DNA of 63,498 bases, the filler included. It is 7 parts of 7 records of this genome, joined end to end, with 100 filler letters (N's around TTAATTAATTAA, not from the genome) between each part and the next. Parts side by side here need not be neighbours in the genome. Positions count along the whole stretch, not along the records: positions 1 to 13,967 come from SRR31156797_34981; 6 more parts are not named here. One strand, written 5' to 3'. The notes beneath the pieces are model-generated. The model had not been told where the DNA came from. It worked only from the letters and a program-made list of their open reading frames with translations, and did not search any database. The first letter of the stretch is position 1; each line of letters starts with the position of its first letter. Below are positions 1 to 18,306 of the stretch, piece by piece. Both the position numbers and the translations under genes were made by a program.

Positions 1-1
1 A

Positions 2-304
2 TGCGCGTCGGCTAACCCATACCTGGTTTTTGCGGCCACCTTTGCCGCGGGATTGGACGGCATCGAAAACAAGATCGACCCGGGCGATCCTTATATTGGT
101 GATTGCTACGGGAACGAGGAACTGCCGCCCATCCCGTCCACGCTCAGTGAAGCCCTTGATGAACTCGAAAAGGATGAGGTTATCTGCAATGCCATCGGGC
201 CGGAAATGGTCCAGGCTTTCACCGCGGTCAAGAGGGAAGAGATCGGGCGTTTCAACACATACATAACGGATTGGGAATTCAACGAATATTCCCACCATCT
301 GTAA
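2..304 (+). CDS. Glutamine synthetase family protein, C-terminal fragment (possibly gamma-glutamylmethylamide synthetase, GmaS-like)
   Basis: Frame open from window start: CASANPYLVFAATFAAGLDGIENKIDPG...IPSTLSEALDELEKD...ITDWEFNEY, a typical GS C-terminus. GmaS role is inferred from the adjacent mgsABC-like genes. Confidence 0.85.
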   Translation, partial: CASANPYLVFAATFAAGLDGIENKIDPGDPYIGDCYGNEELPPIPSTLSEALDELEKDEVICNAIGPEMVQAFTAVKREEIGRFNTYITDWEFNEYSHHL

Positions 305-365
305 ACCTTCGGCTTCGGCCCCGCCTGGCAAGGGCAGGACCGAGCCCGTCCGAATGGAGGGCGCC

Positions 366-1265
366 ATGTGCGGAATCGCAGCTCTGCTTCAGAGGGACGC
401 AGCCGATTTGGGGGCTAAACTCATTGACATGCTGAGGGAAATGGCCCACAGGGGCCGGGACGCCACCGGCTTGGCCTATTACGAGGACCGGGACTTGGCC
501 CAGGTGCGTGTGGCCATGCCGGACAAGGACCTGCTGCAGGTCCTCGAGTCGATCGTCGCCCGCCACGGCCGGTTGATTGATTCCCGCAGCTACCAGGGAA
601 AGGGAGTTTTCACCTTTTTCGAGGGTACGGTGGATGTGCTTGAGGACGACTTGGTCGGACTTCACAGAGCCATCGACGATCACCCGGACCTCTGCGTTCA
701 TTCCATCGGCCGACGGCTCAAGATTTACAAAGACGAGGGCACGGCCGAGGATCTGGCTCGCCGGCATGCAGTCCGGGCGGGAACCTGCTCCCACGGCATT
801 GGTCACGTACGTTTGGCAACGGAGAGCGTGGAAAACATCAACCTGGCCCATCCATTCACGTCATATCTGTATCCGGAACTGGCCATCGTCCACAACGGCC
901 AGTTTACAAATTACTTCAATACCCGCCGGAACATGGAAGCCAGAGGCGTCAAATTCAAGACGACCAATGACTCGGAAATGGCCGCCCATTTCCTTGCTTG
1001 GGAAATGGCGGAAAACAAACGAGATCTGGATGGGGCCATGGCCCGGGCTCAGGAAGAACTGGACGGGGTCTTCACCATCATCGCCTCCACGGTCGATCAG
1101 CTTGGGGCCTTCAGAGACCGACTGGGTTGGAAACCGGTGCTTTATTACGAACTGGATGACGGCGGCGTTTTGCTGGGCTCGGAGCAGATCGCACTGACGC
1201 CCGTTGTGGCGGATGTTTACGCCACTGAACTCGAGCCGGGAGGAGTGAAGGTATGGTCCGTTTAG
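366..1265 (+). CDS. Class II glutamine amidotransferase; N-methylglutamate synthase subunit A-like (MgsA/GlxB)
   Basis: MCGIA start (Ntn Cys) after GGAGG RBS; HRGRDATG, GIGHVRLATES, AHPF, VHNGQFTNY, NDSE motifs. Confidence 0.85.
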   Translation: MCGIAALLQRDAADLGAKLIDMLREMAHRGRDATGLAYYEDRDLAQVRVAMPDKDLLQVLESIVARHGRLIDSRSYQGKGVFTFFEGTVDVLEDDLVGLHRAIDDHPDLCVHSIGRRLKIYKDEGTAEDLARRHAVRAGTCSHGIGHVRLATESVENINLAHPFTSYLYPELAIVHNGQFTNYFNTRRNMEARGVKFKTTNDSEMAAHFLAWEMAENKRDLDGAMARAQEELDGVFTIIASTVDQLGAFRDRLGWKPVLYYELDDGGVLLGSEQIALTPVVADVYATELEPGGVKVWSV

Positions 1266-1951
1266 ACATCGGCGGGCTGTCGACCCGGGAGGTAAACCGG
1301 AAGCTCAAGGAGGCCGCCGCTTCCGACGACGAGATCGTCGTGGTCAACACTCATTCGGTGCATAACTTCGCCACCGCTCTCAAAGGATCGGTTAAAGTAA
1401 CCGTCGAAGGCAGCACCGGGTTCTACACCGGCGGCTTTCTTAGCGGCCCAAGCATACACGTCAAGGGCAACACCGGCTGGTACACCGGTGACAACATGAG
1501 TTCCGGCGAGATTGTGGTGGATATGAACACGGGCAGCAACTGCGCGCCCAGCATGATCGGCGGAACAATACTGGTTCGGGGCCACAGCGGCAGCCGAGCC
1601 GGATTCGGCATGAAAGGCGGAAACCTTATCGTCTGCGGCAACGTGGGTATGTGGGTGGGCCAGATGACTCTGGGCGGACGGATCATCCTTCTGGGTGAAG
1701 TCGGCACGGGTCTGGGCGAATCCATGTATCAGGGCGTCATCCATTGCGCCGACCCAAGCGCGGAAAAGAAGCTGGGCGGCAACGTCAAACTGACCGATAT
1801 GGAGGAATCCGAGCGCAAAGAAGTCGCGGCTCTTTTCTCAAAATACGGCATCGAACAAAACGTGGATGAGCTGAAAAGCGTGGCGCCCAAGGTATACGGC
1901 CGCCACGAGTATCATTTGTTCAAACCTACCCACAAGCAGGCGGTGAGTTAA
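1253..1951 (+). CDS. GltB/FwdC-like GXGXG beta-helix protein; MgsB/GlxC-like
   Basis: Repeated VxGxxGxxxGxxMxGG units; overlaps the upstream gene. Confidence 0.85.
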   Translation: MVRLDIGGLSTREVNRKLKEAAASDDEIVVVNTHSVHNFATALKGSVKVTVEGSTGFYTGGFLSGPSIHVKGNTGWYTGDNMSSGEIVVDMNTGSNCAPSMIGGTILVRGHSGSRAGFGMKGGNLIVCGNVGMWVGQMTLGGRIILLGEVGTGLGESMYQGVIHCADPSAEKKLGGNVKLTDMEESERKEVAALFSKYGIEQNVDELKSVAPKVYGRHEYHLFKPTHKQAVS

Positions 1952-3244
1952 ATGTCGGCCGAAGAGAAAAAAACCAAGGCCAAGGACGTCCAGCGGGGCG
2001 TCTGGAACGCGGAAACGATTTCCGAGGTCCGGTACAAGGCGGAAACCGGCAAACACAGAATCCGGGGTTGCGGATCAACACGATACTTCCCCAACTTCGA
2101 CGACCTGTTAGTCCTGCCCGCTCAGCTTTCACGCCTGTCCGTGGATACCTATCGAGAGGAGTGCCGCACTCAAACCGTTCTCGGCAGCCGGTACGCCAAA
2201 AAACCATTGGTTATCGAGACTCCGATCATGATATCGGGCATGAGCTACGGCGCGCTGAGCAAGGAAGCCAAGATCGCCCTGGCCAAATCCACCCAAATCG
2301 TGGGCACATCCATCAACAACGGCGAGGGCGGCCTGCTGCCGGAGGAAAGGGACAACTCTTACAAGCAGGTGGTTCAGATCCTACCCAGCCGGTTCGGGTT
2401 CTCCCTCGAGAGTATCGAGGCGGCCGACGCGTTGGAAATCATCGTGGGCATCGGCGCCAAGCCTGGACTGTCCGGACACCTGATGGGGTCCAAGATCTCA
2501 AAGGAGATCGCCGAGTTCAGGCAGATCCCCACGGGCATCGATTTGCACAGCCACCCCCGCCATGGAGATATCTTCGGTGCGGATGACATGATCCTTAAGA
2601 TAGAGCAACTGAGGGACGTGACCGATTTCGAGATTCCGATATTCGTGAAGATCGCGGCCGGCCGGGTCAAGGAGGACGTGAAAATCGCGGTCAAGACGGG
2701 CGTGGACGGCATCGTGATCGATGGCGCCGAAGGCGGCACCGGAGCCGCTCCCGTAGTGGCCTCCAAGCACCTGGGCATCCCTACCCTGCCCGCCCTGATC
2801 CAGGCTGTTCGGGCCTTGGAGGAAATGGGCGTCAAGGAGGAGATGAGTCTGATCGTTTCCGGCGGCATCAGGGACGGGGCGGACGTGGCCAAGGCCATGG
2901 CCCTGGGAGCCGATGCGGTCGCCCTGGGCACGGGAACCATGGTTGCCATGGGCTGTGCGGTCTGCCTGCGGTGTCACGAAGGCAAATGCGCCTTCGGAAT
3001 CGGCACACAAGACCCGGAACTCAGGGCAAAGTTGGATGTGGACGAAGCTGCCGAGCGTGTGGCCCGCTACATCAAGGGTATGACCCACGAAGCGGTTATC
3101 CTGGCCAAGGCCGCGGGGAAGACCGCCCTGGCAAACCTTGAACGGGAAGACATCCGTTCCATGACCCTCGAAGCCTGCGCCATGACGGGCATACCCCTGA
3201 TTGGAAGCAACTTTGTCTTCGGCGAACAATTCGGTTTCTGCTGA
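1952..3244 (+). CDS. FMN-binding glutamate synthase domain protein; MgsC/GlxD-like
   Basis: PIMISGMSYGALS, NGEGG, GAKPG, DGAEGGTGAAP, SGGIRDGADVAKAMALGAD, and CAVCLRCHEGKCAFGIGTQDPELR Fe-S motif. Confidence 0.9.
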   Translation: MSAEEKKTKAKDVQRGVWNAETISEVRYKAETGKHRIRGCGSTRYFPNFDDLLVLPAQLSRLSVDTYREECRTQTVLGSRYAKKPLVIETPIMISGMSYGALSKEAKIALAKSTQIVGTSINNGEGGLLPEERDNSYKQVVQILPSRFGFSLESIEAADALEIIVGIGAKPGLSGHLMGSKISKEIAEFRQIPTGIDLHSHPRHGDIFGADDMILKIEQLRDVTDFEIPIFVKIAAGRVKEDVKIAVKTGVDGIVIDGAEGGTGAAPVVASKHLGIPTLPALIQAVRALEEMGVKEEMSLIVSGGIRDGADVAKAMALGADAVALGTGTMVAMGCAVCLRCHEGKCAFGIGTQDPELRAKLDVDEAAERVARYIKGMTHEAVILAKAAGKTALANLEREDIRSMTLEACAMTGIPLIGSNFVFGEQFGFC

Positions 3245-3275
3245 TTTCGAAGCAAGGGCGAAAAAAATGCAAAGC

Positions 3276-3611
3276 ATGAGAATCCAACAACATCCGGTCC
3301 TTGGGGAAATCGAAAAAGGGCGCAAGGTGACATTCACCTTCGACGGGAAACCCATGGAAGGATATGAGGGCGAGCCCGTTGCCGCCGCACTCAGGGCGGT
3401 AGGTGTTTTGATCCATCGTTATACGTCAAAGAGGAAAGAGCCGAGAGGGGTGTTTTGCGCTATCGGCCGTTGCACGGATTGCGTCATGATAGTGGACGGC
3501 AGACTCAATGTCCGCACCTGCGTTGAACCTCTAAAAGAGGGCATGGATGTCAGGACTCAGTACGGACTTGGCCGCGACGCGCTGAATGAGGCGGGTCATG
3601 GACAGGGTTGA
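3276..3611 (+). CDS. [2Fe-2S] subunit of a sarcosine oxidase/proline dehydrogenase/HcnA-like complex
   Basis: MRIQQHPVLG, GEPVAAAL, RGVFCAIGRCTDCVMIVDG..NVRTC; alternative start at 3267. Confidence 0.85.
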   Translation: MRIQQHPVLGEIEKGRKVTFTFDGKPMEGYEGEPVAAALRAVGVLIHRYTSKRKEPRGVFCAIGRCTDCVMIVDGRLNVRTCVEPLKEGMDVRTQYGLGRDALNEAGHGQG

Positions 3612-4686
3612 GATGATCTGCGTCGGGGCCGGGCCGGCAGGCCTGGCCGGGGCAATTGAGGCTGCCCGCTACGGCGTGCAAGTGGTAGTGTACGACGAGA
3701 ACGACCGGCCGGGCGGACAACTTTTCAAACAGATCCACAAGTTCTTTGGATCAAAGGAACACCGGGCCATGGAACGGGGCGTCTCCATCGGGCGCGGCCT
3801 TCTGGAGGAGGCTCGGGACCTGGGCGTGGACGTCCGGCTGCATTCAACGGTATTGGGGATTTACGAAAACCGCGTCCTGAACGTAATGCTCCACGACCAT
3901 ATTCACCAGGCTCGCGCCGAACGATTGCTCGTAGCCACGGGAGCTTCGGAAAACATGATTCCCTTCCCCGGTTGGACGCTGCCCGGGGTGATCGGGGCCG
4001 GCGCGGCCCAGACCATGGCCAATATTCACGGCATTCGGCCTGGAACACGGCTGCTCATGGTGGGATCGGGCAACGTGGGCCTGGTGGTCGGCTACCAGAT
4101 GATACAGGCCGGCTGCCGTGTGGAAGCGGTGATAGACGCCGCACCCCGAATCGGCGGGTATGGCGTGCATGCGGCCAAGGCGGCCCGTTTCGGAGTGCCG
4201 TTTTATATGTCACACACAATCAAGAAGGCCATCGGTGAAACCCGGATCGAGGGAGCCGAAATTGTGGCCGTGGACGATAAATGGCAGCCGATCCCGGGAA
4301 CGGAAAAAGGTCTGGACGTGGATGCCATCTGCCTGGCTGTCGGCCTGAACCCCATGAATCAGTTGTTGCGGATGTCCGGATGCGCCATGTCGTGGTCCCC
4401 GGTTTTGGGCGGATACGTACCAGCCCATGACGAAAAACAGGAAACCACGATCTCCGGCATATACGTGGCCGGGGACGTATCCGGAATCGAGGAGGCCAGT
4501 ACGGCCATCATTGAAGGCCGGGCGGCCGGTCTGGCAGCGGCCCACAGCCTGGGATACCTGGACGACTCATCATTTGCGGTAAAACTGGCTGAACAAAATC
4601 AAAATATGATCGGCTTGCGAAGCGGTCCCCATGGGGAAAACCGCCGACTGGCCAAAGAAGAACTCTTCCGAGCCGCATCAAGGTGA
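3598..4686 (+). CDS. FAD/NAD(P)-binding oxidoreductase subunit (sarcosine oxidase alpha N-domain/HcnB-like)
   Basis: VGAGPAGLAGA, GGQLFKQIHKFFG, ATGASE, FPGWTLPGV, VGSGNVG, YVAGDVSGIEEA. Confidence 0.88.
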   Translation: MDRVEMICVGAGPAGLAGAIEAARYGVQVVVYDENDRPGGQLFKQIHKFFGSKEHRAMERGVSIGRGLLEEARDLGVDVRLHSTVLGIYENRVLNVMLHDHIHQARAERLLVATGASENMIPFPGWTLPGVIGAGAAQTMANIHGIRPGTRLLMVGSGNVGLVVGYQMIQAGCRVEAVIDAAPRIGGYGVHAAKAARFGVPFYMSHTIKKAIGETRIEGAEIVAVDDKWQPIPGTEKGLDVDAICLAVGLNPMNQLLRMSGCAMSWSPVLGGYVPAHDEKQETTISGIYVAGDVSGIEEASTAIIEGRAAGLAAAHSLGYLDDSSFAVKLAEQNQNMIGLRSGPHGENRRLAKEELFRAASR

Positions 4687-4690
4687 TCGT

Positions 4691-5194
4691 ATGACGCAAG
4701 GGCTTTCCAGAAACGGGTATTGGTCGGATGAAGAATTGCTAAACAATCCGGGCGCCCCCTCGGAACAGCGACGCCGTAAAGGGCCGGTGGCCGTGATCGA
4801 ATGCCTCGAACTCATCCCCTGCAACCCGTGCGAATCCAGTTGCCGGGTCGGGGCCATCGAGGTGGGATCGGATATCACCGCTCTGCCGAAACTTATCGAG
4901 GATAAATGCGTGGGTTGTTTGACCTGCGCGTTCATCTGCCCGGGCCAGGCCATCTTTCTGGTGGACGAGAGTTTGGAAAACGGACGGGCCGAAGTGACAA
5001 TGCCTTATGAATTTCTGCCTCCACCCGAAAAAGGCGAGGAGGTGATCGCTCTGGACCGGGCGGGCCGGGAACTCGGGCCCGCGACGGTTACAATAGTAAG
5101 ACTAACGGAAAAAATGGACCGGACCGCTTTGGTCTCAATCGAGATTCCCCGCGAATGGTCCATGATTGCACGAGCTTTTCGATTGAATAGATAA
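4691..5194 (+). CDS. 4Fe-4S dicluster subunit of the same dehydrogenase
   Basis: CLELIPCNPCESSC and CVGCLTCAFICPGQAI motifs; AGGTGA RBS. Confidence 0.85.
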   Translation: MTQGLSRNGYWSDEELLNNPGAPSEQRRRKGPVAVIECLELIPCNPCESSCRVGAIEVGSDITALPKLIEDKCVGCLTCAFICPGQAIFLVDESLENGRAEVTMPYEFLPPPEKGEEVIALDRAGRELGPATVTIVRLTEKMDRTALVSIEIPREWSMIARAFRLNR

Positions 5195-5217
5195 CACCCT
5201 TGGGGAGGTAACGAAAA

Positions 5218-5499
5218 ATGGCGGAACAAGCGTTGGGAATGGTTGAAACTCGGGGCCTCGTAGCGGCTATCGAAGCGGCCGATGCCATGGTCAAAGCGGC
5301 CAATGTCCGGTTAGTGGGCAAGGAACACGCCGGCGGCGGACTGGTTTCGATTTATGTCAGGGGCGACGTAGGCGCGGTAAAGGCGGCTACGGATGCCGGC
5401 GGCGCCGCCGCGCAACGCGTGGGAGACCTTGTATCGGTTCATGTCATCCCCAGGCCCCACGCGGACGTGGAAATGATTATTCCAAAACCGGCGAAATAA
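5218..5499 (+). CDS. BMC-H hexameric shell protein (PduA/EutM-like)
   Basis: [26 protein letters not shown]...[13 protein letters not shown]...VHVIPRPH. Confidence 0.97.
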
Positions 5500-5644
5500 A
5501 GATCCCGGGGGCGGAGGCAGAGACAATACAGGGTCGATGCACCGCCCATGGACGGACCCTGGTCGAAAACCGTCGTTGCCAATCCAAACCAGGATGCGCT
5601 GAACGGAACCGGCCGGGTGTACCGACTTGGTGAAGGAGGGCCAT

Positions 5645-5950
5645 ATGGCTTTGAACGTACAATTCATCACCCACCCCGGCAGAGGAGTCATCGACATACT
5701 CCAAAGCCGAATGGGCGCCGGAGCCAAAAAGGCGATGGAACTGGTGAATTTCAGTGCCGTCGGCCTGGTCCAGGGGCGGTTGGTGGACATGATGTACGCG
5801 GCCGACGTGGCGGAAAAGGCGGCGGATGTCCAGGTCTTCGACCTGAAGGGCAGTTGTCCCCAGCACCTGACCATGATCGGCATCTTCGGAGATATCGCCG
5901 CGGTCAGGGCCGGTCTGGACGCCATCGTCGGGGATGAAACCTTAAAGTAG
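5645..5950 (+). CDS. Divergent BMC-H shell protein, GrpU-like (putative Fe-S binding)
   Basis: AVGLVQG..DMMYAADVAEKAA..DLKGSCPQHL..IFGDIAAV; GxCPQ is the GrpU signature; GAAGGAGG RBS. Confidence 0.8.
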   Translation: MALNVQFITHPGRGVIDILQSRMGAGAKKAMELVNFSAVGLVQGRLVDMMYAADVAEKAADVQVFDLKGSCPQHLTMIGIFGDIAAVRAGLDAIVGDETLK

Positions 5951-5987
5951 AGCCTCGCTATCGAGGCTTGAAGTCAGGTGAGGCAAA

Positions 5988-6269
5988 ATGGTAATCGCCA
6001 AGGTGGTCGGCAATGTCTGGTCGACAAAAAAAAATCCGAAGATCAACGCGCTCAGACTGCTTTTCGTTCAGCCTTTGGACCGCAATATGGAGCCGGCCGG
6101 AGAAGTGCTTGTGGCAGCCGACGAGATCGGGGCCGGGATCGGCGAGATGGTGCTGGTCACCTTGGGGTCGCCCGCCCGGGACGCCCTCACTCGGAGCGGC
6201 GACCCGGCGCCTCTGGACGCCGCGGTGGTGGCCATCGTTGACAGTCTGGATCTACCGGAAACGGATTGA
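5988..6269 (+). CDS. BMC-P vertex pentamer (EutN/CcmL family)
   Basis: MVIAKVVGNVWSTKK...VAADEIGAGIGEMVLV..GSPAR...DAAVVAIVD. Confidence 0.95.
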   Translation: MVIAKVVGNVWSTKKNPKINALRLLFVQPLDRNMEPAGEVLVAADEIGAGIGEMVLVTLGSPARDALTRSGDPAPLDAAVVAIVDSLDLPETD

Positions 6270-6280
6270 GGATATAGTGA

Positions 6281-7618
6281 GTGAGTAAAACGGCCGACAT
6301 CATTGAGAAAGTCCGTAGCGCCGGAGTGGTGGGCGCTGGTGGGGCCGGTTTCCCAACCCACATCAAACTCGACGCCAAGGTTGAAGTTGTTCTGGCCAAC
6401 GGCGCTTCCTGTGAACCGTTACTGGCAAGTGATACATGGCTCATGGAGCATGAGGCCACAGCCGTCATCCGGGGTCTGACGTCGGTGATGGAAGCCGTGG
6501 GCGCGGCCGAGGGCAAGATCTGCCTCAAGGGCAAACACAAAGCGGCCATGAGCGCGGTTAACAAAGCAGTTGCCGCGTCCGGTCACAAGGGCCTGGAGGT
6601 TGTGGAACTCGGTGATTTCTACCCGGCCGGCGACGAGCAGGTCCTGGTGTATGAGGTTCTGGGCAGGGTAGTACCCGAAGGCGGCATTCCGCTCCAGGTG
6701 GGCGCCGTGGTCTGCAACATAGAATCATTGTATAACGTGACCCTGGCATTAGAGGAAGACCGGCCGGTAACCGACCGCTTCCTTACCGTAGCCGGCGAAG
6801 TGTCCCGACCGATAATCACGAGGATTCCGTTGGGCGTGCGGATCGGCGACGTTATCGATTTGGCCGGAGGCGCGAAGATTTCCGACTTCAAGGTCATTGT
6901 CGGCGGTCCCATGATGGGTCTGGTTACCGCCGACCTGGATATGCCGGTGACCAAAACCGCCAGCGGTCTTATTGTTCTCCCGCCGGGCCATAACGTGGCG
7001 GTCGGCAAGATGAAGGACCCGGATCGACTGATGTACGTCACCCGCGTAGCCTGTTGCCAATGCTCACGCTGCACGGACATGTGTCCGCGCAACCTGTTGG
7101 GTCACGCACTCAGGCCGCATCTCATCATGCGCCAACTGGGATCTCCAATGGGTATCAGCCAGGAAATCATGCAGGACGCCCTGATCTGTTCGGAATGCGG
7201 TATTTGCGAAAAATTCGCCTGCCCCATGATGATTTCCCCCCGAGAAGTCAATGCCCGGATCAAGCGTGAACTGATGACCGCCGGAGTAAAAAGGGATCCG
7301 CGCACCGAAGAATATCGGCCCTCACGTTTTCGCGATGTAAGGTATATCCCTACCTCGCGGCTCATCGAGCGACTTCAACTTCGGCCGTATGACTTTCACA
7401 CCGAATATTTGGAATCGGATTTTCAGCCGGACCGGGCGGCCATCCCGCTTAAGCAGCATCTGGGCGCGCCGGCCTTGCCGGTGGTTAAGGTCGGGGATAT
7501 GGTAAAAAAAGGCGATTTGATCGGCGAGATCCCCGAAGGCGCCCTTGGCGCCCGGATTCACGCCGGTATGGACGGCCGGGTGGAAGCCGTCTCGGACGCC
7601 GTGATCATTCAGAGATAA
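6281..7618 (+). CDS. pduS: PduS-like (RnfC-like) flavin/Fe-S oxidoreductase
   Basis: AGVVGAGGAGFPTHIK, NGASCEPLL, FYPAGDEQVLVYEV, GGPMMG, CCQCSRCTDMCPRNLLGH, CSECGICEKFACP, PLKQHLGAP. Confidence 0.9.
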   Translation: MSKTADIIEKVRSAGVVGAGGAGFPTHIKLDAKVEVVLANGASCEPLLASDTWLMEHEATAVIRGLTSVMEAVGAAEGKICLKGKHKAAMSAVNKAVAASGHKGLEVVELGDFYPAGDEQVLVYEVLGRVVPEGGIPLQVGAVVCNIESLYNVTLALEEDRPVTDRFLTVAGEVSRPIITRIPLGVRIGDVIDLAGGAKISDFKVIVGGPMMGLVTADLDMPVTKTASGLIVLPPGHNVAVGKMKDPDRLMYVTRVACCQCSRCTDMCPRNLLGHALRPHLIMRQLGSPMGISQEIMQDALICSECGICEKFACPMMISPREVNARIKRELMTAGVKRDPRTEEYRPSRFRDVRYIPTSRLIERLQLRPYDFHTEYLESDFQPDRAAIPLKQHLGAPALPVVKVGDMVKKGDLIGEIPEGALGARIHAGMDGRVEAVSDAVIIQR

Positions 7619-7627
7619 AGGACGGGA

Positions 7628-8188
7628 ATGACCAACATGGAATTTCGAGCTATCGGCCTGATCGAACTGCAAAGCGTCGCCACAGGCATCCTGTGCGCGG
7701 ATGAAATGATCAAGTCCGCCAGCGTCGATCTCATCCTCGCCCGGGCTATCTGCCCGGGGCGGTACATGGCCATGATTTCCGGAGATACCGGCGCCGTACA
7801 AAACGCCGTGGATGTTGGGCGCGAAAGGGCCGGCGAGTTTCTGGTGGATTGGTTTGTCATCCCCAATGTGCACCCCGACGTCTTCCCGGCTTTCAACTGC
7901 ACCACGCCCTTAGTGAACTTGCGTTCCCTGGGCGTCATCGAAACCTATTCCGCCGCCTCATGCATCACCGCCGCCGACGCCGCCGCCAAAGCCGGCGATA
8001 TAGATCTCATTGAAATCCGCTGCGCCACAGGCCTGGCCGGGAAATCCTTCGTCACCCTCACCGGGGACGTCGGTTCGGTCAACGCTTCGGTGGAAGCCGG
8101 TGTGGGCGCCATCATCGATACGGGATTGGTCATGAGCTACGTGGTCATTCCCGCGCCGAGCAAGGAACTTTACGGATCTCTGGCATGA
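7628..8188 (+). CDS. pduT: PduT-like BMC-T shell protein
   Basis: AIGLIELQSVATGI..ADEMIKSA, ICPGRY pore Cys, second domain LGVIETYSAAS..AADAAAKA; directly follows pduS. Confidence 0.9.
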   Translation: MTNMEFRAIGLIELQSVATGILCADEMIKSASVDLILARAICPGRYMAMISGDTGAVQNAVDVGRERAGEFLVDWFVIPNVHPDVFPAFNCTTPLVNLRSLGVIETYSAASCITAADAAAKAGDIDLIEIRCATGLAGKSFVTLTGDVGSVNASVEAGVGAIIDTGLVMSYVVIPAPSKELYGSLA

Positions 8189-9018
8189 AAGATATTGTGA
8201 AACATACAGCCGCGCTGGTGAACCGGCCCGACTCCTGGGATTTCGAAGGCGCGCGCACGCTCTACGCAGGAGTGGACGTAGGCACTTTCAAGATTGGTTT
8301 GATCGTGGTGGATGAGGAAGGACGGCCCCGTGCCGCGATGATCCGCCGGGCCGACGTCGTCAAGTCCGGCCTGGTGGTCGATTATTTTGGAGCGTTGACC
8401 TACGTCAGGGAAATGATCGGGGAACTCCGCTCAATTTCGCCCATTCCCATCGAGAAAGGGGCCACTTCATACCCGCCTCGGACCGAATCCGGAAACATTA
8501 ATACCACCCGTCACATATTGGAAGCGGTAGGCTTGGATGTCCTGAATATATTGGACGAACCCAGCGCGGCCAACCTGGTGCTCGGCCTTTCCGCCGGGGC
8601 CATCGTGGATGTGGGCGGCGGCACTACCGGCGTAGCCGTGATCGAGGACGGCCGGATCGTATACACCGACGACGAGGCCACCGGCGGGGTGCACCTGACG
8701 TTGGTTCTGGCGGGCGGCCTGGGAGTGGATTACGAGGAGGCCGAGCGGATCAAGATGGACAGGTCCAGGCAAGGGGAACTGCTGCCCATGGTGCTGCCGG
8801 TGATCGAGAAAATATCTACTATCGTCAACGGAGTTCTTCGGAAAAACAGGGCAGTGGACCGACTTTGCCTTGTTGGCGGCACAACGGAATTCGAGGGATT
8901 TGACAGGGTGATAGGGTCCATCTGCGGAATCGAGGCTTTTCGTCCGCCGTCGCCCCGGGTTGTGACCCCCCTCGGCATTGCCCTGTCCTGCCTGAAGAGT
9001 AACGGAGGCGTCCAATGA
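8185..9018 (+). CDS. eutJ: EutJ-family Hsp70/actin-like protein
   Basis: GVDVGT, VVKSGLVVDYFGA, LDEPSAA, VDVGGGTTG, DEATGGVHLTLVLAG, VTPLGIA. Confidence 0.92.
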   Translation: MKDIVKHTAALVNRPDSWDFEGARTLYAGVDVGTFKIGLIVVDEEGRPRAAMIRRADVVKSGLVVDYFGALTYVREMIGELRSISPIPIEKGATSYPPRTESGNINTTRHILEAVGLDVLNILDEPSAANLVLGLSAGAIVDVGGGTTGVAVIEDGRIVYTDDEATGGVHLTLVLAGGLGVDYEEAERIKMDRSRQGELLPMVLPVIEKISTIVNGVLRKNRAVDRLCLVGGTTEFEGFDRVIGSICGIEAFRPPSPRVVTPLGIALSCLKSNGGVQ

Positions 9019-9824
9019 GCACTCCGAGCAAAGCGGAAATCGGGCGAATCGTCAGAAGGGTGTTGGATGAGGTACTGAAAAACAGTGCTTCCATACCGGA
9101 GGCTTCCCCCAAATCCGGCCCTCGCGCGCTGATCGTTTACCACGGCGGCACGGCTCGCCTTGAAGAGGCCCGGAAAGAAACCGACCGGATCGGCGAGGCC
9201 AGCTTCAAGTCCGGTGTGTTAATTTCCGAAGCGGTTCGGGAAGACATATGCGGAATCGGTACCGACGGACGGCCCAGGGGGCAGTGCCAACTCGATACCG
9301 TCCCTCATCCCGGCCTGGAAACGGTATTGGAAAGGGCGGATGTCCTGGTTCTGCCGACCTTCTGCCTGACCGTGGCGGCCAAAGCAGTCCGGCTGGAATT
9401 TAGCGACCCTGACGCCGGGCTGGTGCTTTCGGCCCTGGTGCAAAACAAACCCGTGCTGGCGTCAAACGACGGATTTCTGGTGTTAGGTCGGTTGAAGAAC
9501 GAAAAACTGCGGATGGAATTCGACCGGATTCTTTCCGTTCTGGCCGACTGGGGGGTGACCTTTACGCCCACGGAAAAACTGGCCGACGAGTTCTTCCGGC
9601 TGATCGGTTCGAATAAAAAAGCCGATCCCGCACCGGTCTCCCCGGTCGCGTCATCCGCCCCGTTGGAAACCGGCGGCCTGAAGCTGATCTCCGCCAACGA
9701 CGTTCGCCGGGCGGTGAATGAAAAGAGAAAAGAAATCTTCCTTGCACCGGGCGGACTGATAACGCCATTGGCCCGGGATCTGGCCAAGGATTATTCAATA
9801 ACCATCAAATTGCATGGAGCTTGA
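9015..9824 (+). CDS. BMC-associated flavoprotein-like protein with N-terminal encapsulation-peptide-like helix
   Basis: N-terminal KAEIGRIVRRVLDEVLK amphipathic helix; ADVLVLPT...AAK...LVQNKPVLA core; C-terminal LISANDV...LITPLARDLAK module. Confidence 0.65.
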   Translation: MSTPSKAEIGRIVRRVLDEVLKNSASIPEASPKSGPRALIVYHGGTARLEEARKETDRIGEASFKSGVLISEAVREDICGIGTDGRPRGQCQLDTVPHPGLETVLERADVLVLPTFCLTVAAKAVRLEFSDPDAGLVLSALVQNKPVLASNDGFLVLGRLKNEKLRMEFDRILSVLADWGVTFTPTEKLADEFFRLIGSNKKADPAPVSPVASSAPLETGGLKLISANDVRRAVNEKRKEIFLAPGGLITPLARDLAKDYSITIKLHGA

Positions 9825-9827
9825 GGA

Positions 9828-10448
9828 ATGACCGAACTCCGAGCCTATTGTCACCTGGATCGCCTGCAACCCCAATTCTCGTCCCTATTGGCCAGCCGCT
9901 GCCGGGGCTTCATGCCCGTGGAGGGCATGGCCTCCCTGATCGTCGAGATCGCGCCGGGCGTCGAGATCAACCGGTTGACCGACATTTCCCTCAAGCTGAC
10001 CAATGCCAAGCCCGGGGAGATGATAGTTGAACGGCGTTACGGGATGCTGGAGATCCATTCGTTCGACCAGGAGGAGATTCTCCACGCCGGCCAGATGATC
10101 CTGGAGGAGCTTGGGCTCAGGGAGGATGACCGGCTGATGCCCAGCATCCTGACTACCAGCATCATCAACAAGATCGACCCGTACCAGGCGGTGATAATCA
10201 ACCGCAACAGTTCGGGGATGCTCATTCTGGGCGGGGACGACGTATACCTTCTGGAAGTGGCCCCGGCTGCCTATTCGGCATTGGCAGCCAATGAAGCGGA
10301 AAAGTTCACGGGAGTGAAGCTGGTGGACATGCGTTTTTACGGCGCGGCCGGTCGCGTCTACCTGGCCGGCGCCGAATCGGAAATACTGGCCGCGGCCCAA
10401 AAGGTTGTTGAAACGCTGAATACCGTAACGGGCCGACCCGGCAAGTAA
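9828..10448 (+). CDS. BMC-Tdp shell protein (CcmP/CsoS1D-like), copy 1
   Basis: ELRAYCHLDRLQPQF, VEIAPG, IVERRYGMLEIHS, LEVAPAAY..LAANEAEK, GAAGRVYLAG. Confidence 0.9.
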   Translation: MTELRAYCHLDRLQPQFSSLLASRCRGFMPVEGMASLIVEIAPGVEINRLTDISLKLTNAKPGEMIVERRYGMLEIHSFDQEEILHAGQMILEELGLREDDRLMPSILTTSIINKIDPYQAVIINRNSSGMLILGGDDVYLLEVAPAAYSALAANEAEKFTGVKLVDMRFYGAAGRVYLAGAESEILAAAQKVVETLNTVTGRPGK

Positions 10449-10475
10449 CAAGAATTGTAATAACGGAGCCCGATT

Positions 10476-11054
10476 ATGCCGATTTTCATATTCGCCCGAG
10501 ATGCACAGGACGTGGTCCTGGAAGGCGGCAAAAAGCTGGTCGTTCCTGAAAACGCCCGCATCACCATGGCCGCCCGGGAAGTGATCCGGGACTATGGCCT
10601 GGAAGTGGTTTACCAGCCGCCGGCCTCACCGATGCCCGCGGCGGCGCCGGAGCCTGTGGCGTCCTCGGCTGCTCCGGATGGGGATATCACGGATGAGGAC
10701 GTGGAAATCATTCTCGGCAGAGTGCTGGAACGCCTCGCCCTGGCCAAAGGTGAAAAAAAACCGGTTGCCGCGCCTTCCGTTGAACCGGCCGATGACGATG
10801 AATTGATCATCTGCAGGTGCGAGGAGATTACCAAGGGAGAGATTCGGGATGCCATCCGAACAGGCATGTCCACCCTCAACGGCGTCAAACGAGTTACTCG
10901 CGCCGGCATGGGTCTTTGCCAGGGCCAGACCTGTCAACGCCTGGTCACCCAAATCCTTTGCAGTGAGCTCGGCCTCGGCCCCGCCGACGTCGCCCCAACA
11001 ACCGCCCGCGCTCCGGTCCGCCCGGTTCCGCTTACGGCCCTGGCCTCGGGTTAG
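10476..11054 (+). CDS. BFD-like [2Fe-2S] dehydrogenase subunit fused to a BMC-type N-terminal module and putative encapsulation peptide
   Basis: C-terminal IICRCEEIT...KRVTRAGMGLCQGQTC...RAPVRPV; Pro/Ala linkers flank ITDEDVEIILGRVLERLALA. Confidence 0.85.
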   Translation: MPIFIFARDAQDVVLEGGKKLVVPENARITMAAREVIRDYGLEVVYQPPASPMPAAAPEPVASSAAPDGDITDEDVEIILGRVLERLALAKGEKKPVAAPSVEPADDDELIICRCEEITKGEIRDAIRTGMSTLNGVKRVTRAGMGLCQGQTCQRLVTQILCSELGLGPADVAPTTARAPVRPVPLTALASG

Positions 11055-11063
11055 GAGGGAAAC

Positions 11064-12269
11064 ATGCCCGAAACCGCGGATATTGTGATTATTGGCGGCG
11101 GCGTAATGGGTTGCGGCCTGGCCTACTTTCTGGCCAAGGAAGGCCTGCGCGCGGTTGTGATCGAAAAGTCGGACATCGGCGGCGAAGCCTCCGGCAGCAA
11201 CGGCGGGGGCGTTCGCCAATCGGCCCGGCACCTCAAGGAAATGCCCCTGGCCATGGCCAGCGTGAAGATGTACGAAACACTTCACGAAGAGCTGGGCATG
11301 GACGTGGAATATACCCAAAAAGGCAATTTGAGGCTCTGCGTTTCCGAGGCCGAAGTCGAATCCATGAAGAGCTCGGTGAAAAGCCAAAAAGCCGTCGGCC
11401 TTGACCTGGAGTTTCTGGACCGCAAACAGATTCTCGATATAAACCCGTACGTGGGTGAAAAGGTTATCGGCGCCAGTTGGTGCGCCACGGATGGCCACGT
11501 CAACCCGCTGCTGGTTACATATGGTTTTTTCAAAAGGGCAAAAGAGCGGGGCGCGACATTTCATACCCATGAAAAGGTGACCGATATCTTCTTTCGTCAG
11601 GGGCGTGTCCGGGGTGTTGTGACCGAACAGCGCGTCATCGAAACCGACACCGTGGTCAATGCCGCCGGTGTTGCCGGGCGGGAAATCGCCAACATGGTCG
11701 GGCTGGATATGCCCCTGCGCCCCATTTTTTCAGAGGCCTTGATCACGGAGCCTTATCCGGAACTGTTTCCCCAAATGGTGGGCCAGGCCGCCGGGCTTTT
11801 TTACGGCCGCCAGACCAAACACGGCTCCTTCTTCTGGGGCGGTTTCTCCGGCGACGAGCAGTTTATCCACCGGGGAGGAAAGCCTCTTTTCCACTATATC
11901 GGCCCGGTCATCGCCCGCATGGTAAACGACTATTTCCCCGTGCTTCGGGATCTGCACGCCATTCGCATGTGGTCCGGGCTGATCGCCGGCATGTCCGACG
12001 GGCTGCCTATTCTGGGTCTGGTCGAGGAGACGCCCGGATTCGTCTTTATGACCGGTTTTTCCGGGCACGGATTCGGCATCGCTCCGATCATAACCAAGCT
12101 GATGTCCGAACTCATTCTGGACTGCAAGCCTTCCATGCCCCTAAATGACTTTTGCTACACCCGCTTCCAGAAGAACGGCGAACTAGATTGCGCCTGCCAT
12201 AGCGGCGACGCCTGCGCGGTCCATTCGACGCTTTGCCCGAACAAGCGGGAATTTTTAAGGAATTTATAA
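11064..12269 (+). CDS. FAD-dependent amine/amino-acid oxidoreductase (DAO family; SoxB/MgdA/HcnC-like)
   Basis: IIGGGVMG, EASGSNGGGVR, DGHVNP, VVNAAG, MSDGLPILG, GFSGHGFGIAP. Confidence 0.9.
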   Translation: MPETADIVIIGGGVMGCGLAYFLAKEGLRAVVIEKSDIGGEASGSNGGGVRQSARHLKEMPLAMASVKMYETLHEELGMDVEYTQKGNLRLCVSEAEVESMKSSVKSQKAVGLDLEFLDRKQILDINPYVGEKVIGASWCATDGHVNPLLVTYGFFKRAKERGATFHTHEKVTDIFFRQGRVRGVVTEQRVIETDTVVNAAGVAGREIANMVGLDMPLRPIFSEALITEPYPELFPQMVGQAAGLFYGRQTKHGSFFWGGFSGDEQFIHRGGKPLFHYIGPVIARMVNDYFPVLRDLHAIRMWSGLIAGMSDGLPILGLVEETPGFVFMTGFSGHGFGIAPIITKLMSELILDCKPSMPLNDFCYTRFQKNGELDCACHSGDACAVHSTLCPNKREFLRNL

Positions 12270-12285
12270 ACAGGAGCTCCGTAAA

Positions 12286-12906
12286 ATGGTGGATCTGAGA
12301 GCTTACGCCATCATCGACCAACTCCAGCGGCAGTTTGTTGGCTTTATCGGTTCGACCGCCAAGGGGTACTACCCCGTGGCCGGTCAATCGGCTCTGTTCA
12401 TCGAAATCGCCCCGGGATTGGAAATCAATACGTTAACCAATGTCGTGCTGAAGAAATCAGGGGTGCTTCCGGGCGCCATGGTTGTTGAGCGTAACTTCGG
12501 GATGCTGGAAGTCCACGCCGACGACCCTTCGGACGTGAACGAGGCCGGGGCCGTCCTCCTCGAAAGCCTTGGGCTTCGGGAAGAGGACCGCATAAAACCG
12601 GAAATTTTATCATCGGTTGTCATCGAGCGGGCCGATCCGTTCATGGCCCAGATCGTCAACCGCTTTCGTAACGCCAACATGCTACAGAGCGACCAGACCA
12701 TGTACACATTGGAGATCGTGCCGGCCGGATATGCCGGTTTGGCCGCCAACGAGGCGGAAAAGGCCGCCGACATCACGCTTGTCCACGTAACAGTATTCGG
12801 GGCTTCGGGTCGTGTCTATCTGGCCGGGTCATCATCCGACATTCAAGCCGCCAAGGAAGCCGCCGAAAGCGCTTTGGCGGCCTTGACCGGGCGGGAGACC
12901 GGTTAA
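12286..12906 (+). CDS. BMC-Tdp shell protein, copy 2
   Basis: DLRAYAIIDQLQRQF, IEIAPG, VERNFGMLEVH, LEIVPAGYAGLAANEAEKAA, GASGRVYLAG. Confidence 0.9.
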   Translation: MVDLRAYAIIDQLQRQFVGFIGSTAKGYYPVAGQSALFIEIAPGLEINTLTNVVLKKSGVLPGAMVVERNFGMLEVHADDPSDVNEAGAVLLESLGLREEDRIKPEILSSVVIERADPFMAQIVNRFRNANMLQSDQTMYTLEIVPAGYAGLAANEAEKAADITLVHVTVFGASGRVYLAGSSSDIQAAKEAAESALAALTGRETG

Positions 12907-12928
12907 CCGGGTTTGTAAGGCAAAAATC

Positions 12929-13888
12929 ATGAGCGCCATGAGCAAACAAGATCTCCTCAAAAAAATAATTCGAATCTACCCCAAGCTTTCGAAGAAAAAA
13001 AAGCGAGTGGCCGACTATATCCTGTCCGACTACAAGAGTCTTTTCCTGACCACGGCCAAGGAGCTGGCCGCTATCTGCGAGGTTAGCGAACCCACCGTCA
13101 TCCGCTTCGTCGGCGACCTGGGATTCAACGGTTACATAGAGTTCGAACGATACATCAAAGGCCTCCTGCATGTGGAACTCACCAGCGTGGAACGGCTCGT
13201 CAAAACCAAACCCGCCAGCTCGGCAGCCACCACCCTGGAAGCCTACACCGATAATACCGTTAAAAATCTGGAAAACATGATCAACACCGTCTCGGCCGAG
13301 GAACTCGGCCGTCTGGCAATAGCCATTCACCGTGCGCCGGCCGTGATCGTGGCCGGTTTTCGGGCTTCGGCCGTTCTGGCCCAATATTTCGGGTATCTGT
13401 TGAGGAAGGTCCGCCATGATGTGTTCATCGAAACCACGGCCTCGGTTGACACATATGACCGCATTGCCTTGTCCGGCCCCGATGTAACTCTTGTGGTTAT
13501 CTGTTTTCCAAGGTATCCTGAAAAAACCATTGAACTCGCGAAATACGCACAAAAGTTCAAGACTCCGGTCATAGGCATTAGTGATATACCCAAATCTCCA
13601 ATAATATCGCTGTCCGATCAGTTTGTGGCGTTAGACATCGACGGGATCAGCTTTGTCGATCCTTTTGCTCATATCATCACCTTTCTGGGCGCCCTGATTC
13701 ATGAGATCACCTTTATTGATGAAGAAGCCACATTGAAGAGGCTCAAACAAATCGAGGCAGGCGTAAAGGAACGGGTGGAGTTCTACTCGCTTGAGGATGA
13801 AGGAATCCGGGATTACGATCCCCTGGAATTCCCGTCCCAGGAAGCCATCGCGCCCGGCACTGATTTTAGTCGAAATCAAAAACGGTAG
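12929..13888 (+). CDS. MurR/RpiR family transcriptional regulator
   Basis: LSKKKKRVADYIL..ELAAICEVSEPTVIRF..LGFNGY HTH, followed by an SIS domain (GFRAS, FPRYP, SDIPKSPI). Confidence 0.92.
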   Translation: MSAMSKQDLLKKIIRIYPKLSKKKKRVADYILSDYKSLFLTTAKELAAICEVSEPTVIRFVGDLGFNGYIEFERYIKGLLHVELTSVERLVKTKPASSAATTLEAYTDNTVKNLENMINTVSAEELGRLAIAIHRAPAVIVAGFRASAVLAQYFGYLLRKVRHDVFIETTASVDTYDRIALSGPDVTLVVICFPRYPEKTIELAKYAQKFKTPVIGISDIPKSPIISLSDQFVALDIDGISFVDPFAHIITFLGALIHEITFIDEEATLKRLKQIEAGVKERVEFYSLEDEGIRDYDPLEFPSQEAIAPGTDFSRNQKR

Positions 13889-13967: not shown

Positions 13968-14067
13968 NNNNNNNNNNNNNNNNNNNNNNNNNNNNNNNNN
14001 NNNNNNNNNNNTTAATTAATTAANNNNNNNNNNNNNNNNNNNNNNNNNNNNNNNNNNNNNNNNNNNN
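13968..14067. other. Artificial contig linker
   Basis: N-run, TTAATTAATTAA (stops in all frames), N-run; base composition changes abruptly across it. Confidence 0.98.
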
Positions 14068-18304: not shown

Positions 18305-18306
18305 TT

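Follow-up and report, generated by a model that had tools for sequence, protein, structure and literature searches.

What does a bacterial microcompartment (BMC) do when its shell genes are interleaved with a ligase gene of the glutamine synthetase (GS) family, a trio of genes resembling a split glutamate synthase, and the subunits of a flavin/Fe-S amine dehydrogenase? The question is raised by the first contig of a 63,498-nucleotide stretch of DNA (the window), in which 19 closely packed plus-strand genes span positions 2-13888. The locus genes were called from open reading frames (ORFs) and then compared with Pfam and NCBIfam profiles, and flanking context was taken from related genomes. The original prediction had listed these co-oriented, tightly spaced genes as a candidate new BMC type built on a methylamine/N-methylglutamate-type pathway; the inventory was confirmed, with the frame of the GrpU-like gene corrected to 5627-5950. 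The host is an uncultured relative of sulfate reducers. The locus belongs to a catalogued BMC type, MIC6, and with slightly better than even confidence MIC6 can be read as an amine-oxidising metabolosome, in which an amine would pass by way of a gamma-glutamyl amide, an N-alkylglutamate and an aldehyde to an acyl-CoA in the shell, with PduS and PduT re-oxidising the NADH. The conversion of an amine to an aldehyde inside a protein shell is, judging from the genes, the probable function.

The locus is a member of the MIC6 type in the BMC catalogue of Sutter et al. 2021 (PMC8217296), as far as the catalogue's text, trees and HMM table describe that type, and is not the new type that had been proposed. 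The grounds for the assignment are gene order, the sizes of the proteins, the family of the host and hidden Markov model (HMM) labels rather than a direct alignment with the sequences of the reference metagenome-assembled genome (MAG). That reference, Desulfobacteraceae 4484_190.3, is labelled bmcType=MIC6 in the supplementary shell-protein trees, and its entries include grpU-like1 B1H13_00910 (99 aa) and ccmPlike B1H13_00940 (205 aa) (PMC8217296). In the window the GrpU-like gene and the first BMC-T gene (9828-10448, 206 aa) are six genes apart, the same spacing as in the reference. The catalogue's HMM table contains HMM01266_1_mic6 (DAO) and HMM04324_1_mic6 (Fer2_BFD), and both of these MIC6-specific cargo families, PF01266 and PF04324, are present in the locus. 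The main text treats MIC2-7 as types of unknown function, and term searches of this main text returned no mention of GS, glutamate synthase or sarcosine oxidase (PMC8217296). Full-text searches of the literature, together with the catalogue's main text, trees and HMM table, found no function for MIC6, and the full-text searches found no N-methylglutamate-like pathway tied to a microcompartment or to sulfate reducers. Within the literature searched, the functional reading, the encapsulation-peptide assignment and the cysteine-motif distinction described below appear to be new.

MIC stands for metabolosome with incomplete core, and its definition includes an aldehyde dehydrogenase (AldDH) of pfam00171 (PMC8217296). 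The contig carrying the locus covers positions 1-13967 and truncates it at both ends, within the GS-like gene and 79 bp past the RpiR gene. No AldDH, alcohol dehydrogenase (ADH) or phosphotransacylase (PTAC) is encoded on its 13,967 nt, as had been noted from the letters; for the AldDH this holds for the contig but not for its relatives, where a pfam00171 AldDH of the EutE/PduP type lies directly downstream, 1-4 kb beyond the locus end, in all five related genomes (NF011927, 518-537 bits against a cut-off of 403). The absence of the AldDH is best read as a truncation artefact, because the contig stops just short of the position that the AldDH and transporter genes occupy in relatives. With the AldDH directly downstream in five of five, the locus is therefore probably an AldDH metabolosome with an incomplete core and not a shell without a classical core. 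The nearest solved structures to the relatives' AldDHs are the BMC-type CoA-acylating enzymes 5JFL (344 bits) and 4C3S (322 bits). The flanks of related loci, as far as scanned, contain no PTAC or Fe-ADH gene, and PduL was not found in four of the five genomes, the complete chromosome G001 among them. A TRAP transporter also lies downstream in five of five related genomes and a RidA gene in four; the remaining six contigs of the window carry no AldDH, RidA, TRAP or Liv genes.

With the FMN subunit of the trio as scan query and one genome per species, 46 loci were collected, mostly from MAGs of the Desulfobacterales/Thermodesulfobacteriota, and their synteny was mapped by tblastn. The trio is present in all 46 and is accompanied by the GS-like gene in 40, the other six being five contig-end cuts and one rearranged locus. 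Shell genes adjoin the same enzymes in 26 of the 36 loci that continue for 3.5 kb or more downstream of the GltS-like gene, and because of this pairing the clustering of enzyme and shell genes is not due to chance. The interleaving of shell genes with a GS-like ligase, an MgsABC-collinear trio and a flavin/Fe-S amine dehydrogenase, claimed for the window alone, is thus found in many Desulfobacterales genomes, and the call for mgs-like genes beside shell genes elsewhere is answered by the same 26 loci. Most shell-bearing loci share the gene order of 2-13888, two Desulfobacula loci being rearranged. In four of five genomes examined the locus is the only one containing BMC-P. Environmental data hold more than 1000 homologues of its CcmP-like shell trimer (copy 1) at E <= 1e-40, among which the catalogue reference protein A0A1V4SCJ9 was not picked out. 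The locus is real, conserved and environmentally common.

Ten loci carry the enzyme set without adjoining shell genes. They come from SAR324/unclassified Proteobacteria (L029, L039, L042, L044), Firmicutes (L040, L041, L043, L045), Desulfobacter curvatus (L046) and Desulfococcaceae HSG9 (L030), and the genomes of L042, L039 and L046 contain no BMC-P gene. The GS-like gene, the trio and the dehydrogenase remain linked even in shell-less genomes of three phyla. In Desulfococcaceae HSG9 (G006; L030, L072) the system is split over two contigs: one holds the GS-like gene, the trio, two AldDH genes, LysE and a C26 amidotransferase, and the other the dehydrogenase subunits, all the shell genes, PduS/PduT and orf269, with no match to EutJ on this second contig. 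In L029 the first trio is followed, ahead of the dehydrogenase genes, by a second, divergent GATase/GXGXG/FMN trio (35/44/47% identity to the 2-13888 proteins); judging from their longer core spans, L042 and L044 may have one too.

Full-length orthologues of the GS-like protein have 442-479 aa. Thirty-five full-length locus proteins were aligned with E. coli GlnA, leaving out the fragment in the window, same-genome duplicates and open-ended ORFs. The metal, ATP and glutamate ligands are conserved in all 35. The residues that we take from the GS literature to form the ammonium site, checked on E. coli GlnA, are each replaced in 35 of 35: D50 by A, V, S or C, Y179 by V, I, C or L, and E327 by F. 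The same three positions are also changed in E. coli PuuA and in R. etli GlnT. Since the ammonium site is lost while the other ligands are kept, the alignment supports a gamma-glutamyl-amine ligase and not an ammonia-fixing GS. The protein is also not a GmaS/GlnT orthologue by score, structure match or quick tree. It reaches 302-330 against the GlnA profile (cut-off 429), 314-328 against GlnT/GmaS TIGR03105 (cut-off 469.6) and 260-293 bits against the gamma-glutamylputrescine synthetase NF045547 (cut-off 650). Its identity to GlnT (30-33%) is slightly above that to E. coli PuuA (27-32%) or GlnA, and among solved structures true GS (250 bits) outscores the glutamate-methylamine ligases (204-208 bits). 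The tree check proposed with the original prediction was made for this protein as a quick tree with one GmaS reference and long reference branches; it places the locus proteins in one clade apart from GlnT, GlnA and PuuA, with G002_GS_C53 on a very long branch suspected to reflect faulty ORF extraction.

The trio is collinear over its full length with R. etli MgsA/B/C (35/28/48% identity), in the same A-B-C order, and the N-terminal catalytic Cys of the amidotransferase subunit is conserved. The FMN subunit carries a C-x2-C-x2-C-x4-C motif in 44 of 44 locus proteins, shell-less loci included, at the position of C-x5-C-x4-C in E. coli GltB, which we take to be the [3Fe-4S] site of glutamate synthase. 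In the glnT-linked MgsC proteins of R. etli and Ca. Mycobacterium methanotrophicum, two of two have an insertion of ~25 residues and no Cys at the cluster site. The classical N-methylglutamate synthase reaction is redox-neutral. Because the Cys motif is kept at the GltB cluster position, the FMN subunit family probably exchanges electrons with a partner, like glutamate synthase. An intermediate form is found in L075, on a plasmid of Burkholderia sp. PAMC 26561, where an MgsC-like protein has both the canonical MgsC insertion and the cluster-site Cys; its gene stands beside an APC permease, and the fetched region contains no glnT or sox genes. The N-methylglutamate-type pathway first proposed survives as distant homology and a collinear trio; the ligase, the Cys motif of the FMN subunit and the dehydrogenase differ, and by these comparisons the relation appears to be one of distant homology only.

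This homology raises the possibility of a methylamine route, a sub-case of the amine-oxidising pathway set out above, in which methylamine would be converted by way of N-methylglutamate into confined formaldehyde and by the AldDH into formyl-CoA, giving sulfate reducers a means of methylamine oxidation. The N-methylglutamate pathway is the only characterised one to pair a GS-like ligase with a split GltB-type trio, and the trio here is collinear with it. To our knowledge, methylamine is not a substrate for transaminases dependent on pyridoxal phosphate (PLP), and this would explain the need for a route of such complexity. The glutathione-dependent formaldehyde-detoxification genes FrmA and FghA lie upstream of the shell-less L042 and L044 (FrmA 720 bits against a cut-off of 544, FrmB/FghA 415 against 282), although the two loci come from related genomes and so amount to about one observation. 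Radiotracer data suggest non-methanogenic methylamine oxidation in sulfate-rich sediment (bioRxiv 10.1101/2024.07.16.603764). Against these points, the GS-like protein falls under the GlnT/GmaS cut-off, forms its own clade and is no closer to glutamate-methylamine ligases than to true GS; the FMN subunit is unlike both glnT-linked MgsC proteins at the Cys motif; the dehydrogenase is not of the SoxBDAG type, having no folate-binding domain, SoxD or SoxG; and the linked transporters are of amino-acid/organic-acid types. The nearest solved relatives of the AldDH are, moreover, BMC-type CoA-acylating enzymes, which act on C2-C3 aldehydes. The methylamine and C1 chemistry of the original prediction is not borne out by this evidence: the route through formaldehyde is unlikely, and methylamine is at present a doubtful choice of substrate.

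The dehydrogenase itself is assembled from separate subunits. The DAO protein finds 1Y56_B as its top PDB match (173 bits), deposited as a sarcosine oxidase and which we take to be the beta subunit of an archaeal (Pyrococcus) L-proline dehydrogenase. SoxB 2GAG_B follows at 104 bits, and identity to the R. etli SoxB-type subunit is 26%. The Pyr_redox_2 subunit matches positions 169-493 of TIGR01372 soxA, and its top PDB match is 2GAG_A, the alpha subunit of sarcosine oxidase. Only the N-terminal 600 residues of SoxA have counterparts here, namely the Fer2_4, Pyr_redox_2 and BFD/SO_A3 proteins; Pfam, NCBIfam and BLASTP detected no GCV_T folate-binding domain and no SoxD/delta or SoxG/gamma subunit in the locus. 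The set of DAO, Pyr_redox_2/BFD and Fer2_4 agrees with the HcnABC/opine/proline dehydrogenase family, whose architecture it presumably represents, so that by its domains the enzyme is HcnABC/proline-dehydrogenase-like and not of the SoxBDAG type. In shell-less loci the subunits are fused: Pyr_redox+BFD+SO_A3 and DAO+Fer4 in the SAR324-type loci (Fer4-DAO in L029, L039, L042 and L044) and Pyr_redox+Fer4 in Firmicutes. These fusions tie the separate proteins into what is predicted to be one complex. The DAO proteins of shell loci are longer at the C-terminus by a tail of ~29 aa in which four Cys are conserved (C-x-C ... C ... CPNK), and which may be a small site for a metal or an Fe-S cluster. 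Firmicutes orthologues lack this tail, and in the SAR324 type the fused 4Fe-4S ferredoxin domain stands in its place.

From the same kinship it could be argued that the substrate is a secondary amine taken up from outside (for instance proline, hydroxyproline or an N-carboxyalkyl amino acid of the opine kind), that an HcnABC-type dehydrogenase oxidises it directly, and that the GS-like protein and the trio only salvage the nitrogen set free. The 1Y56_B match and the subunit set speak for this, as do RidA and the transporters (TRAP, Liv-type, APC), which are in keeping with substrates resembling amino acids and with imine products. The GS-like protein, however, cannot be an ordinary ammonia-assimilating GS, the ammonium site being lost in 35 of 35, and its linkage to the trio and the dehydrogenase persists in shell-less genomes of three phyla. 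An AldDH or an aldehyde:ferredoxin oxidoreductase (AOR) is conserved beside the cluster, and proline and most opines yield no free aldehyde on oxidation. Direct oxidation of a secondary amine is accordingly given a small chance.

An aldehyde as the product is the common denominator of shell and shell-less clusters, since a EutE-type AldDH accompanies the shell loci, a tungsten-type AOR takes the place of the AldDH in the shell-less L029, L039 and L042, and FrmA/FghA genes precede L042 and L044. The RidA genes suggest that an imine is formed on the way, and the glutamate dehydrogenase genes beside L028 and L046 fit regeneration of 2-oxoglutarate. Upstream of L001, L007, L018 and L021 there is a Liv-type ABC transporter, and elsewhere unrelated divergent genes. 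What the transporters (TRAP, Liv-type, APC) import may be an acidic amine resembling an amino acid, or else co-substrates; for the binding proteins of the TRAP and Liv-type systems the PDB matches gave no ligand clue, and NCBIfam matches of the TRAP binding protein, the amidohydrolases and an aminotransferase were generic and gave no substrate clue.

Amidotransferases of the C26 type occur in some flanks (L059, L060 and L030, and upstream in L022 and L028), and a gamma-glutamyl cyclotransferase-like gene follows the Acetobacterium cluster. These GATase1/C26 genes would suit a gamma-glutamyl protection route like that of the E. coli Puu pathway, in which the DAO enzyme oxidises the distal group of a gamma-glutamyl compound, the AldDH acts next, a C26 hydrolase frees glutamate and the trio is accessory. 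The PuuA-like replacements at the ammonium site also agree with such a route, and PuuB of the E. coli puu operon is likewise a DAO-family enzyme. It leaves the trio, kept in 46 of 46 loci, without a role, and the C26 gene is missing from three of five extended loci. The DAO protein scores 63 bits with PuuB, against 107 with SoxB and 173 with 1Y56_B; the AldDH is of the CoA-acylating EutE type and not the PuuC type; and the C26 proteins have no BLASTP match to E. coli PuuD at E <= 1e-3. A Puu-like route is for these reasons considered improbable.

Which enzymes of the amine-oxidising pathway would lie in the lumen is suggested by helices resembling encapsulation peptides (EPs). In shell loci BFD/SO_A3 is a separate protein with an N-terminal module of ~55 aa, a Pro/Ala-rich linker and an EP-like amphipathic helix, which in this locus is DEDVEIILGRVLERL by alignment. 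A similar helix, SKAEIGRIVRRVLDEVL, is found at the N-terminus of orf269, and by eye one is present at the AldDH N-termini of relatives (7/7). A strict regular expression for the helix matched 18 of 23 BFD proteins (this locus's copy not among them), 9 of 22 orf269 proteins and 2 of 7 AldDHs; among controls, the termini of GS, trio, Fer2_4, Pyr_redox, Fer4, DAO and RidA proteins gave 0/10 to 0/44, and PduS and EutJ gave one match each. Judging from the EP-like helices, the DAO tail and the split arrangement in Desulfococcaceae HSG9, the enzymes of the lumen are likely to be the dehydrogenase and the AldDH. The middle of orf269 is flavoprotein-like by an atlas match to PF02441 clusters (score 0.90), a lead only. 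Its C-terminal ~45 aa (9690-9824) resemble the N-terminal module of the BFD protein (10476-10640; BLASTP E = 0.001), with the consensus ...APGG-ITPLARDLAK-Y-I-I. This module of ~45-55 aa lies inside the region matched by TIGR02536 (eut_hyp) and may be a shell- or scaffold-docking element.

The shell provides a possible path for electrons. Motifs described for Fe-S pores are G-X-C-P-Q-N/H in GrpU and C-P/S/A-G-K/R/S-Y/F in PduT, and the pore sequences GSCPQH (GrpU-like) and CPGRY (PduT-like) of the locus fit these motifs as given in that paper (Ferlez et al. 2019, PMC6325248). For BMCs containing AldDH, PduS (MNdh) and PduT (BMC-T-SE) have been proposed to regenerate NAD+ by electron export, a model that covers 361 loci without an alcohol dehydrogenase (Sutter et al. 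2024, PMC11626177). As in the MNdh/BMC-T-SE module outlined there, the PduS-type gene adjoins the tandem BMC-T with the pore Cys. By analogy the locus fits this model of NAD+ recycling in AldDH BMCs without an alcohol dehydrogenase.

Read from the observed genes, motifs and synteny, the chemistry of the amine-oxidising metabolosome would begin with the GS-like ligase joining a primary amine to glutamate at the expense of ATP, giving a gamma-glutamyl amide. The trio would hydrolyse this amide at its class-II amidotransferase site and, at its FMN/Fe-S site, reductively couple the freed amine with 2-oxoglutarate to an N-alkylglutamate. The dehydrogenase (DAO, Pyr_redox_2, Fer2_4, Fer4 and BFD/SO_A3) would then release glutamate and an aldehyde, a step placed inside the shell because the BFD subunit bears an EP-like helix. 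The encapsulated CoA-acylating AldDH would turn the aldehyde into an acyl-CoA, and PduS would hand the electrons of NADH to the Fe-S pore of PduT, and perhaps to GrpU, so that NAD+ is regenerated without an alcohol dehydrogenase. As there is no phosphotransacylase, the two CcmP-like gated trimers may let CoA and acyl-CoA through. What the sequences show directly is the gene content and its synteny, the motifs, the lost ammonium site, the Cys motif and the EP-like helices; from these the chemistry, the substrate and the set of enzymes in the lumen are inferred. A bolder version has the electrons of the dehydrogenase returned through Fe-S carriers to the Cys-cluster glutamate-synthase-like enzyme, so that the step from amine to aldehyde would be redox-neutral, while the electrons of the AldDH would be exported by the Fe-S shell proteins PduT and GrpU. 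MIC6 would then be the first BMC with a PLP-independent, ATP-driven removal of amino groups by way of N-alkylglutamate, in its boldest form acting on methylamine; this version as a whole is rated as rather unlikely.

Several observations weigh against the amine-oxidising reading. GS-like and trio proteins have equal lengths in shell-associated and shell-less loci and carry no terminal extension, so that they may lie inside or outside the shell. The Cys motif, absent from canonical MgsC, may indicate a different, reductant-dependent reaction, and the kinship of the DAO protein with 1Y56_B would fit direct oxidation of an imported secondary amine. The C26-type amidotransferase of some loci fits a Puu-like route. 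The TRAP, Liv-type ABC and APC transporters point to acidic or amino-acid-like solutes and not to simple amines, and the AldDH is located outside the locus's own contig. The usual ligands of RpiR/SIS regulators are phosphosugars.

The features of the locus, and the gene order downstream in related genomes, are collected in Table 1. Orthologue comparison probably shifts the true starts of the Fer4, Fer2_4 and GATase genes ~60, ~80 and ~12 nt past the longest-ORF starts; Fer2_4 orthologues mostly have 101-112 aa. An ORF at 5548-5937 was rejected as the GrpU-like gene, being out of frame with an Arg/Gly-rich, poorly conserved translation. The position of the RpiR gene is kept in four of five extended loci.

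Table 1. Coordinates of the locus genes and the adjoining spacer in the window, and downstream gene order in five related genomes
Feature	Position	Strand	Basis and remarks
GS-like, putative gamma-glutamyl-amine ligase, 3' end (100 aa), cut by stretch start	2..304	+	PF00120, 102 bits
Class-II glutamine-amidotransferase subunit, MgsA-like	354..1265, probable start 366 (MCGI...)	+	GATase_6/7 matches
GXGXG subunit, MgsB-like	1253..1951	+	PF01493, 79 bits
FMN glutamate-synthase-domain subunit, MgsC-like, C-x2-C-x2-C-x4-C	1952..3244	+	PF01645, 354 bits
Small 2Fe-2S subunit, Fer2_4, HcnA/SoxA-N-terminus-like	3201..3611, start probably ~80 nt later	+	PF13510, 103 bits
Pyr_redox_2 FAD/NAD-type subunit, mid-SoxA/HcnB-like	3586..4686	+	PF07992, 111 bits
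Ferredoxin-like 4Fe-4S subunit	4631..5194, probable start 4691	+	Fer4 families; orthologues 165-171 aa
BMC-H shell hexamer	5218..5499	+	PF00936, 98.9 bits; EutM-like, 131 bits
GrpU-like Fe-S BMC-H	5627..5950	+	PF00936, 34.2 bits against a cut-off of 24.5; motif GSCPQH
BMC-P vertex pentamer	5988..6269	+	PF03319, 99.3 bits
PduS-type flavin/Fe-S NADH dehydrogenase (MNdh)	6281..7618	+	Complex1_51K, SLBB, Fer4_17, RnfC_N
PduT-type tandem BMC-T with pore Cys (BMC-T-SE)	7628..8188	+	Two BMC domains, 154 bits; CPGRY
EutJ-family actin-fold ATPase	8185..9018	+	NF011660, 288 bits against a cut-off of 182
orf269, 269-aa protein, predicted to be lumen-targeted	9015..9824	+	No Pfam match; weak TIGR02536 match
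CcmP-like double-stacking BMC-T, copy 1	9828..10448	+	NF053796, 232 bits, under the cut-off of 340
BFD [2Fe-2S] + SO_alpha_A3 dehydrogenase subunit	10476..11054	+	PF04324, PF17806
DAO-family FAD dehydrogenase, catalytic beta-type subunit	11064..12269	+	PF01266, 247 bits
CcmP-like double-stacking BMC-T, copy 2	12286..12906	+	NF053796, 230 bits
RpiR/MurR-type regulator (HTH_6 + SIS)	12929..13888	+	PF01418, PF01380
Artificial contig-join spacer	13968..14067	none	N run, TTAATTAATTAA, N run
Downstream order, G001			DAO, BMC-T, RpiR, AldDH, RidA, DctPQM
Downstream order, G002			Starts as G001, then DctPQM, AldDH, Mo-oxidoreductase, amidohydrolase
Downstream genes, G003			Two AldDH genes, C26-type amidotransferase, RidA, DctPQM
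Downstream genes, G004			AldDH, C26 gene, RidA, DctPQM
Downstream genes, G005			AldDH, RidA, DctPQM, Mo-oxidoreductase

Some neighbouring genes stand apart from the argument. Two of five extended loci end with the gene for a molybdopterin oxidoreductase of cytoplasmic type (690-752 aa; L058:7640-9712, L061:8107-10365); these proteins resemble Fdh-alpha and PhsA and fall below both cut-offs (Fdh-alpha 286-328 against 666). A 490-aa protein conserved in the Firmicutes loci resembles an Xre-type regulator. The window as a whole is not one replicon: it joins seven metagenome contigs (GC 0.33-0.61) by six 100-nt spacers, each an N run, TTAATTAATTAA and an N run (13968-14067, 20721-20820, 30369-30468, 36542-36641, 44402-44501 and 58384-58483). 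A GC step from ~0.58 to ~0.35 near 14 kb, at first suggestive of horizontal transfer or a chimera, is due to an artificial contig join. The Pfam content of the six other contigs, with GC of 0.33-0.61, is unrelated to the locus. One of them, not linked to the locus contig, has a gene at 39128-42259 for a 1043-aa NAD-glutamate-dehydrogenase-like protein, and in Desulfobacter curvatus a 1042-aa ELFV_dehydrog protein, sharing a domain with it, directly follows the shell-less cluster (L046:14254-17382). Another (GC 0.37) has, at 16496-20717, a squalene-hopene-cyclase-like gene adjoining a polyprenyl synthetase-DUF116 fusion.

MIC6 is one of several catalogued BMC types without an assigned function, and the analysis supplies for it a concrete, testable enzyme logic: targeting-like helices occur on the dehydrogenase and the AldDH, not on the ligase or the trio, and the Cys-cluster variant of MgsC would separate an anaerobic family from the aerobic N-methylglutamate synthase. 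Should the substrate be methylamine or another small amine, the locus would give an enzymatic basis for amine oxidation by sulfate reducers, which radiotracer studies raise without resolving (bioRxiv 10.1101/2024.07.16.603764). In the methylamine form, if true, marine Desulfobacterales would oxidise a supposedly 'non-competitive' methanogenic substrate by way of confined formaldehyde and formyl-CoA. The cultured carriers of shell-less clusters, Acetobacterium carbinolicum DSM 2925, Anaeromicropila populeti 743A and Desulfobacter curvatus DSM 3379, make the enzymology approachable.

Compared with known systems, the locus shares with the E. coli Puu pathway the logic of ATP-dependent gamma-glutamylation, a DAO-family oxidase, in its relatives an AldDH and, in some loci, a C26-type amidotransferase. 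The protein matches are weak (PuuA 27-32%, PuuB 24%, PuuC 23%, no match to PuuD), and the Puu pathway has neither a GltB-like trio nor a shell. The N-methylglutamate pathway, taking as reference the R. etli plasmid pRetNXC12c (soxBDAG-type genes, a GlxA regulator, mgsABC-type genes, glnT, purU, folD and a dimethylamine monooxygenase), likewise sets a GS-like ligase lacking the ammonium site beside a three-gene GltB-derived enzyme, followed by a DAO-family dehydrogenase. In contrast to it, MIC6 occurs in anaerobes, with a GS-like protein that branches as a clade of its own and an FMN subunit bearing a 4-Cys motif; its HcnABC-like dehydrogenase is divided into separate proteins and lacks the folate domain and the delta and gamma subunits; folD and purU are missing; and a shell and PduS/PduT belong to the cluster, as does, in relatives, a CoA-acylating AldDH. 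With the HcnABC/opine dehydrogenases and the archaeal L-proline dehydrogenase (1Y56) it has in common the DAO beta-type, Pyr_redox_2 alpha-type, Fer2_4, BFD and ferredoxin modules. It differs from this family in that the alpha subunit is split, with BFD/SO_A3 a separate protein bearing an EP-like helix, the DAO protein has the 4-Cys tail, and the dehydrogenase genes are always linked to the GS-like ligase and the GltB-like trio.

Of the core of classical metabolosomes, the relatives keep the EutE/PduP-type AldDH with its EP-like N-terminus, while PTAC and ADH are not found in their scanned flanks. The glycyl radical enzyme-associated microcompartments (GRM; 'redox-replete' shells) resemble the locus in combining GrpU-type and PduT-type Fe-S shell proteins with PduS, EutJ and, as in its relatives, a EutE/PduP-type AldDH, and differ from it by the glycyl radical enzyme and its activase, neither of which is present in the MIC6 locus. 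GrpU is otherwise described as almost exclusive to GRM loci (PMC6325248). Closest of all is the MIC6 reference itself, with its Desulfobacteraceae host, its six-gene spacing between the GrpU-like and CcmP-like genes and its DAO and Fer2_BFD cargo HMMs. The relatives of the locus have the AldDH without PTAC or ADH, and by gene order, sizes and labels, as given in the catalogue, the locus and the reference agree without a detected difference.

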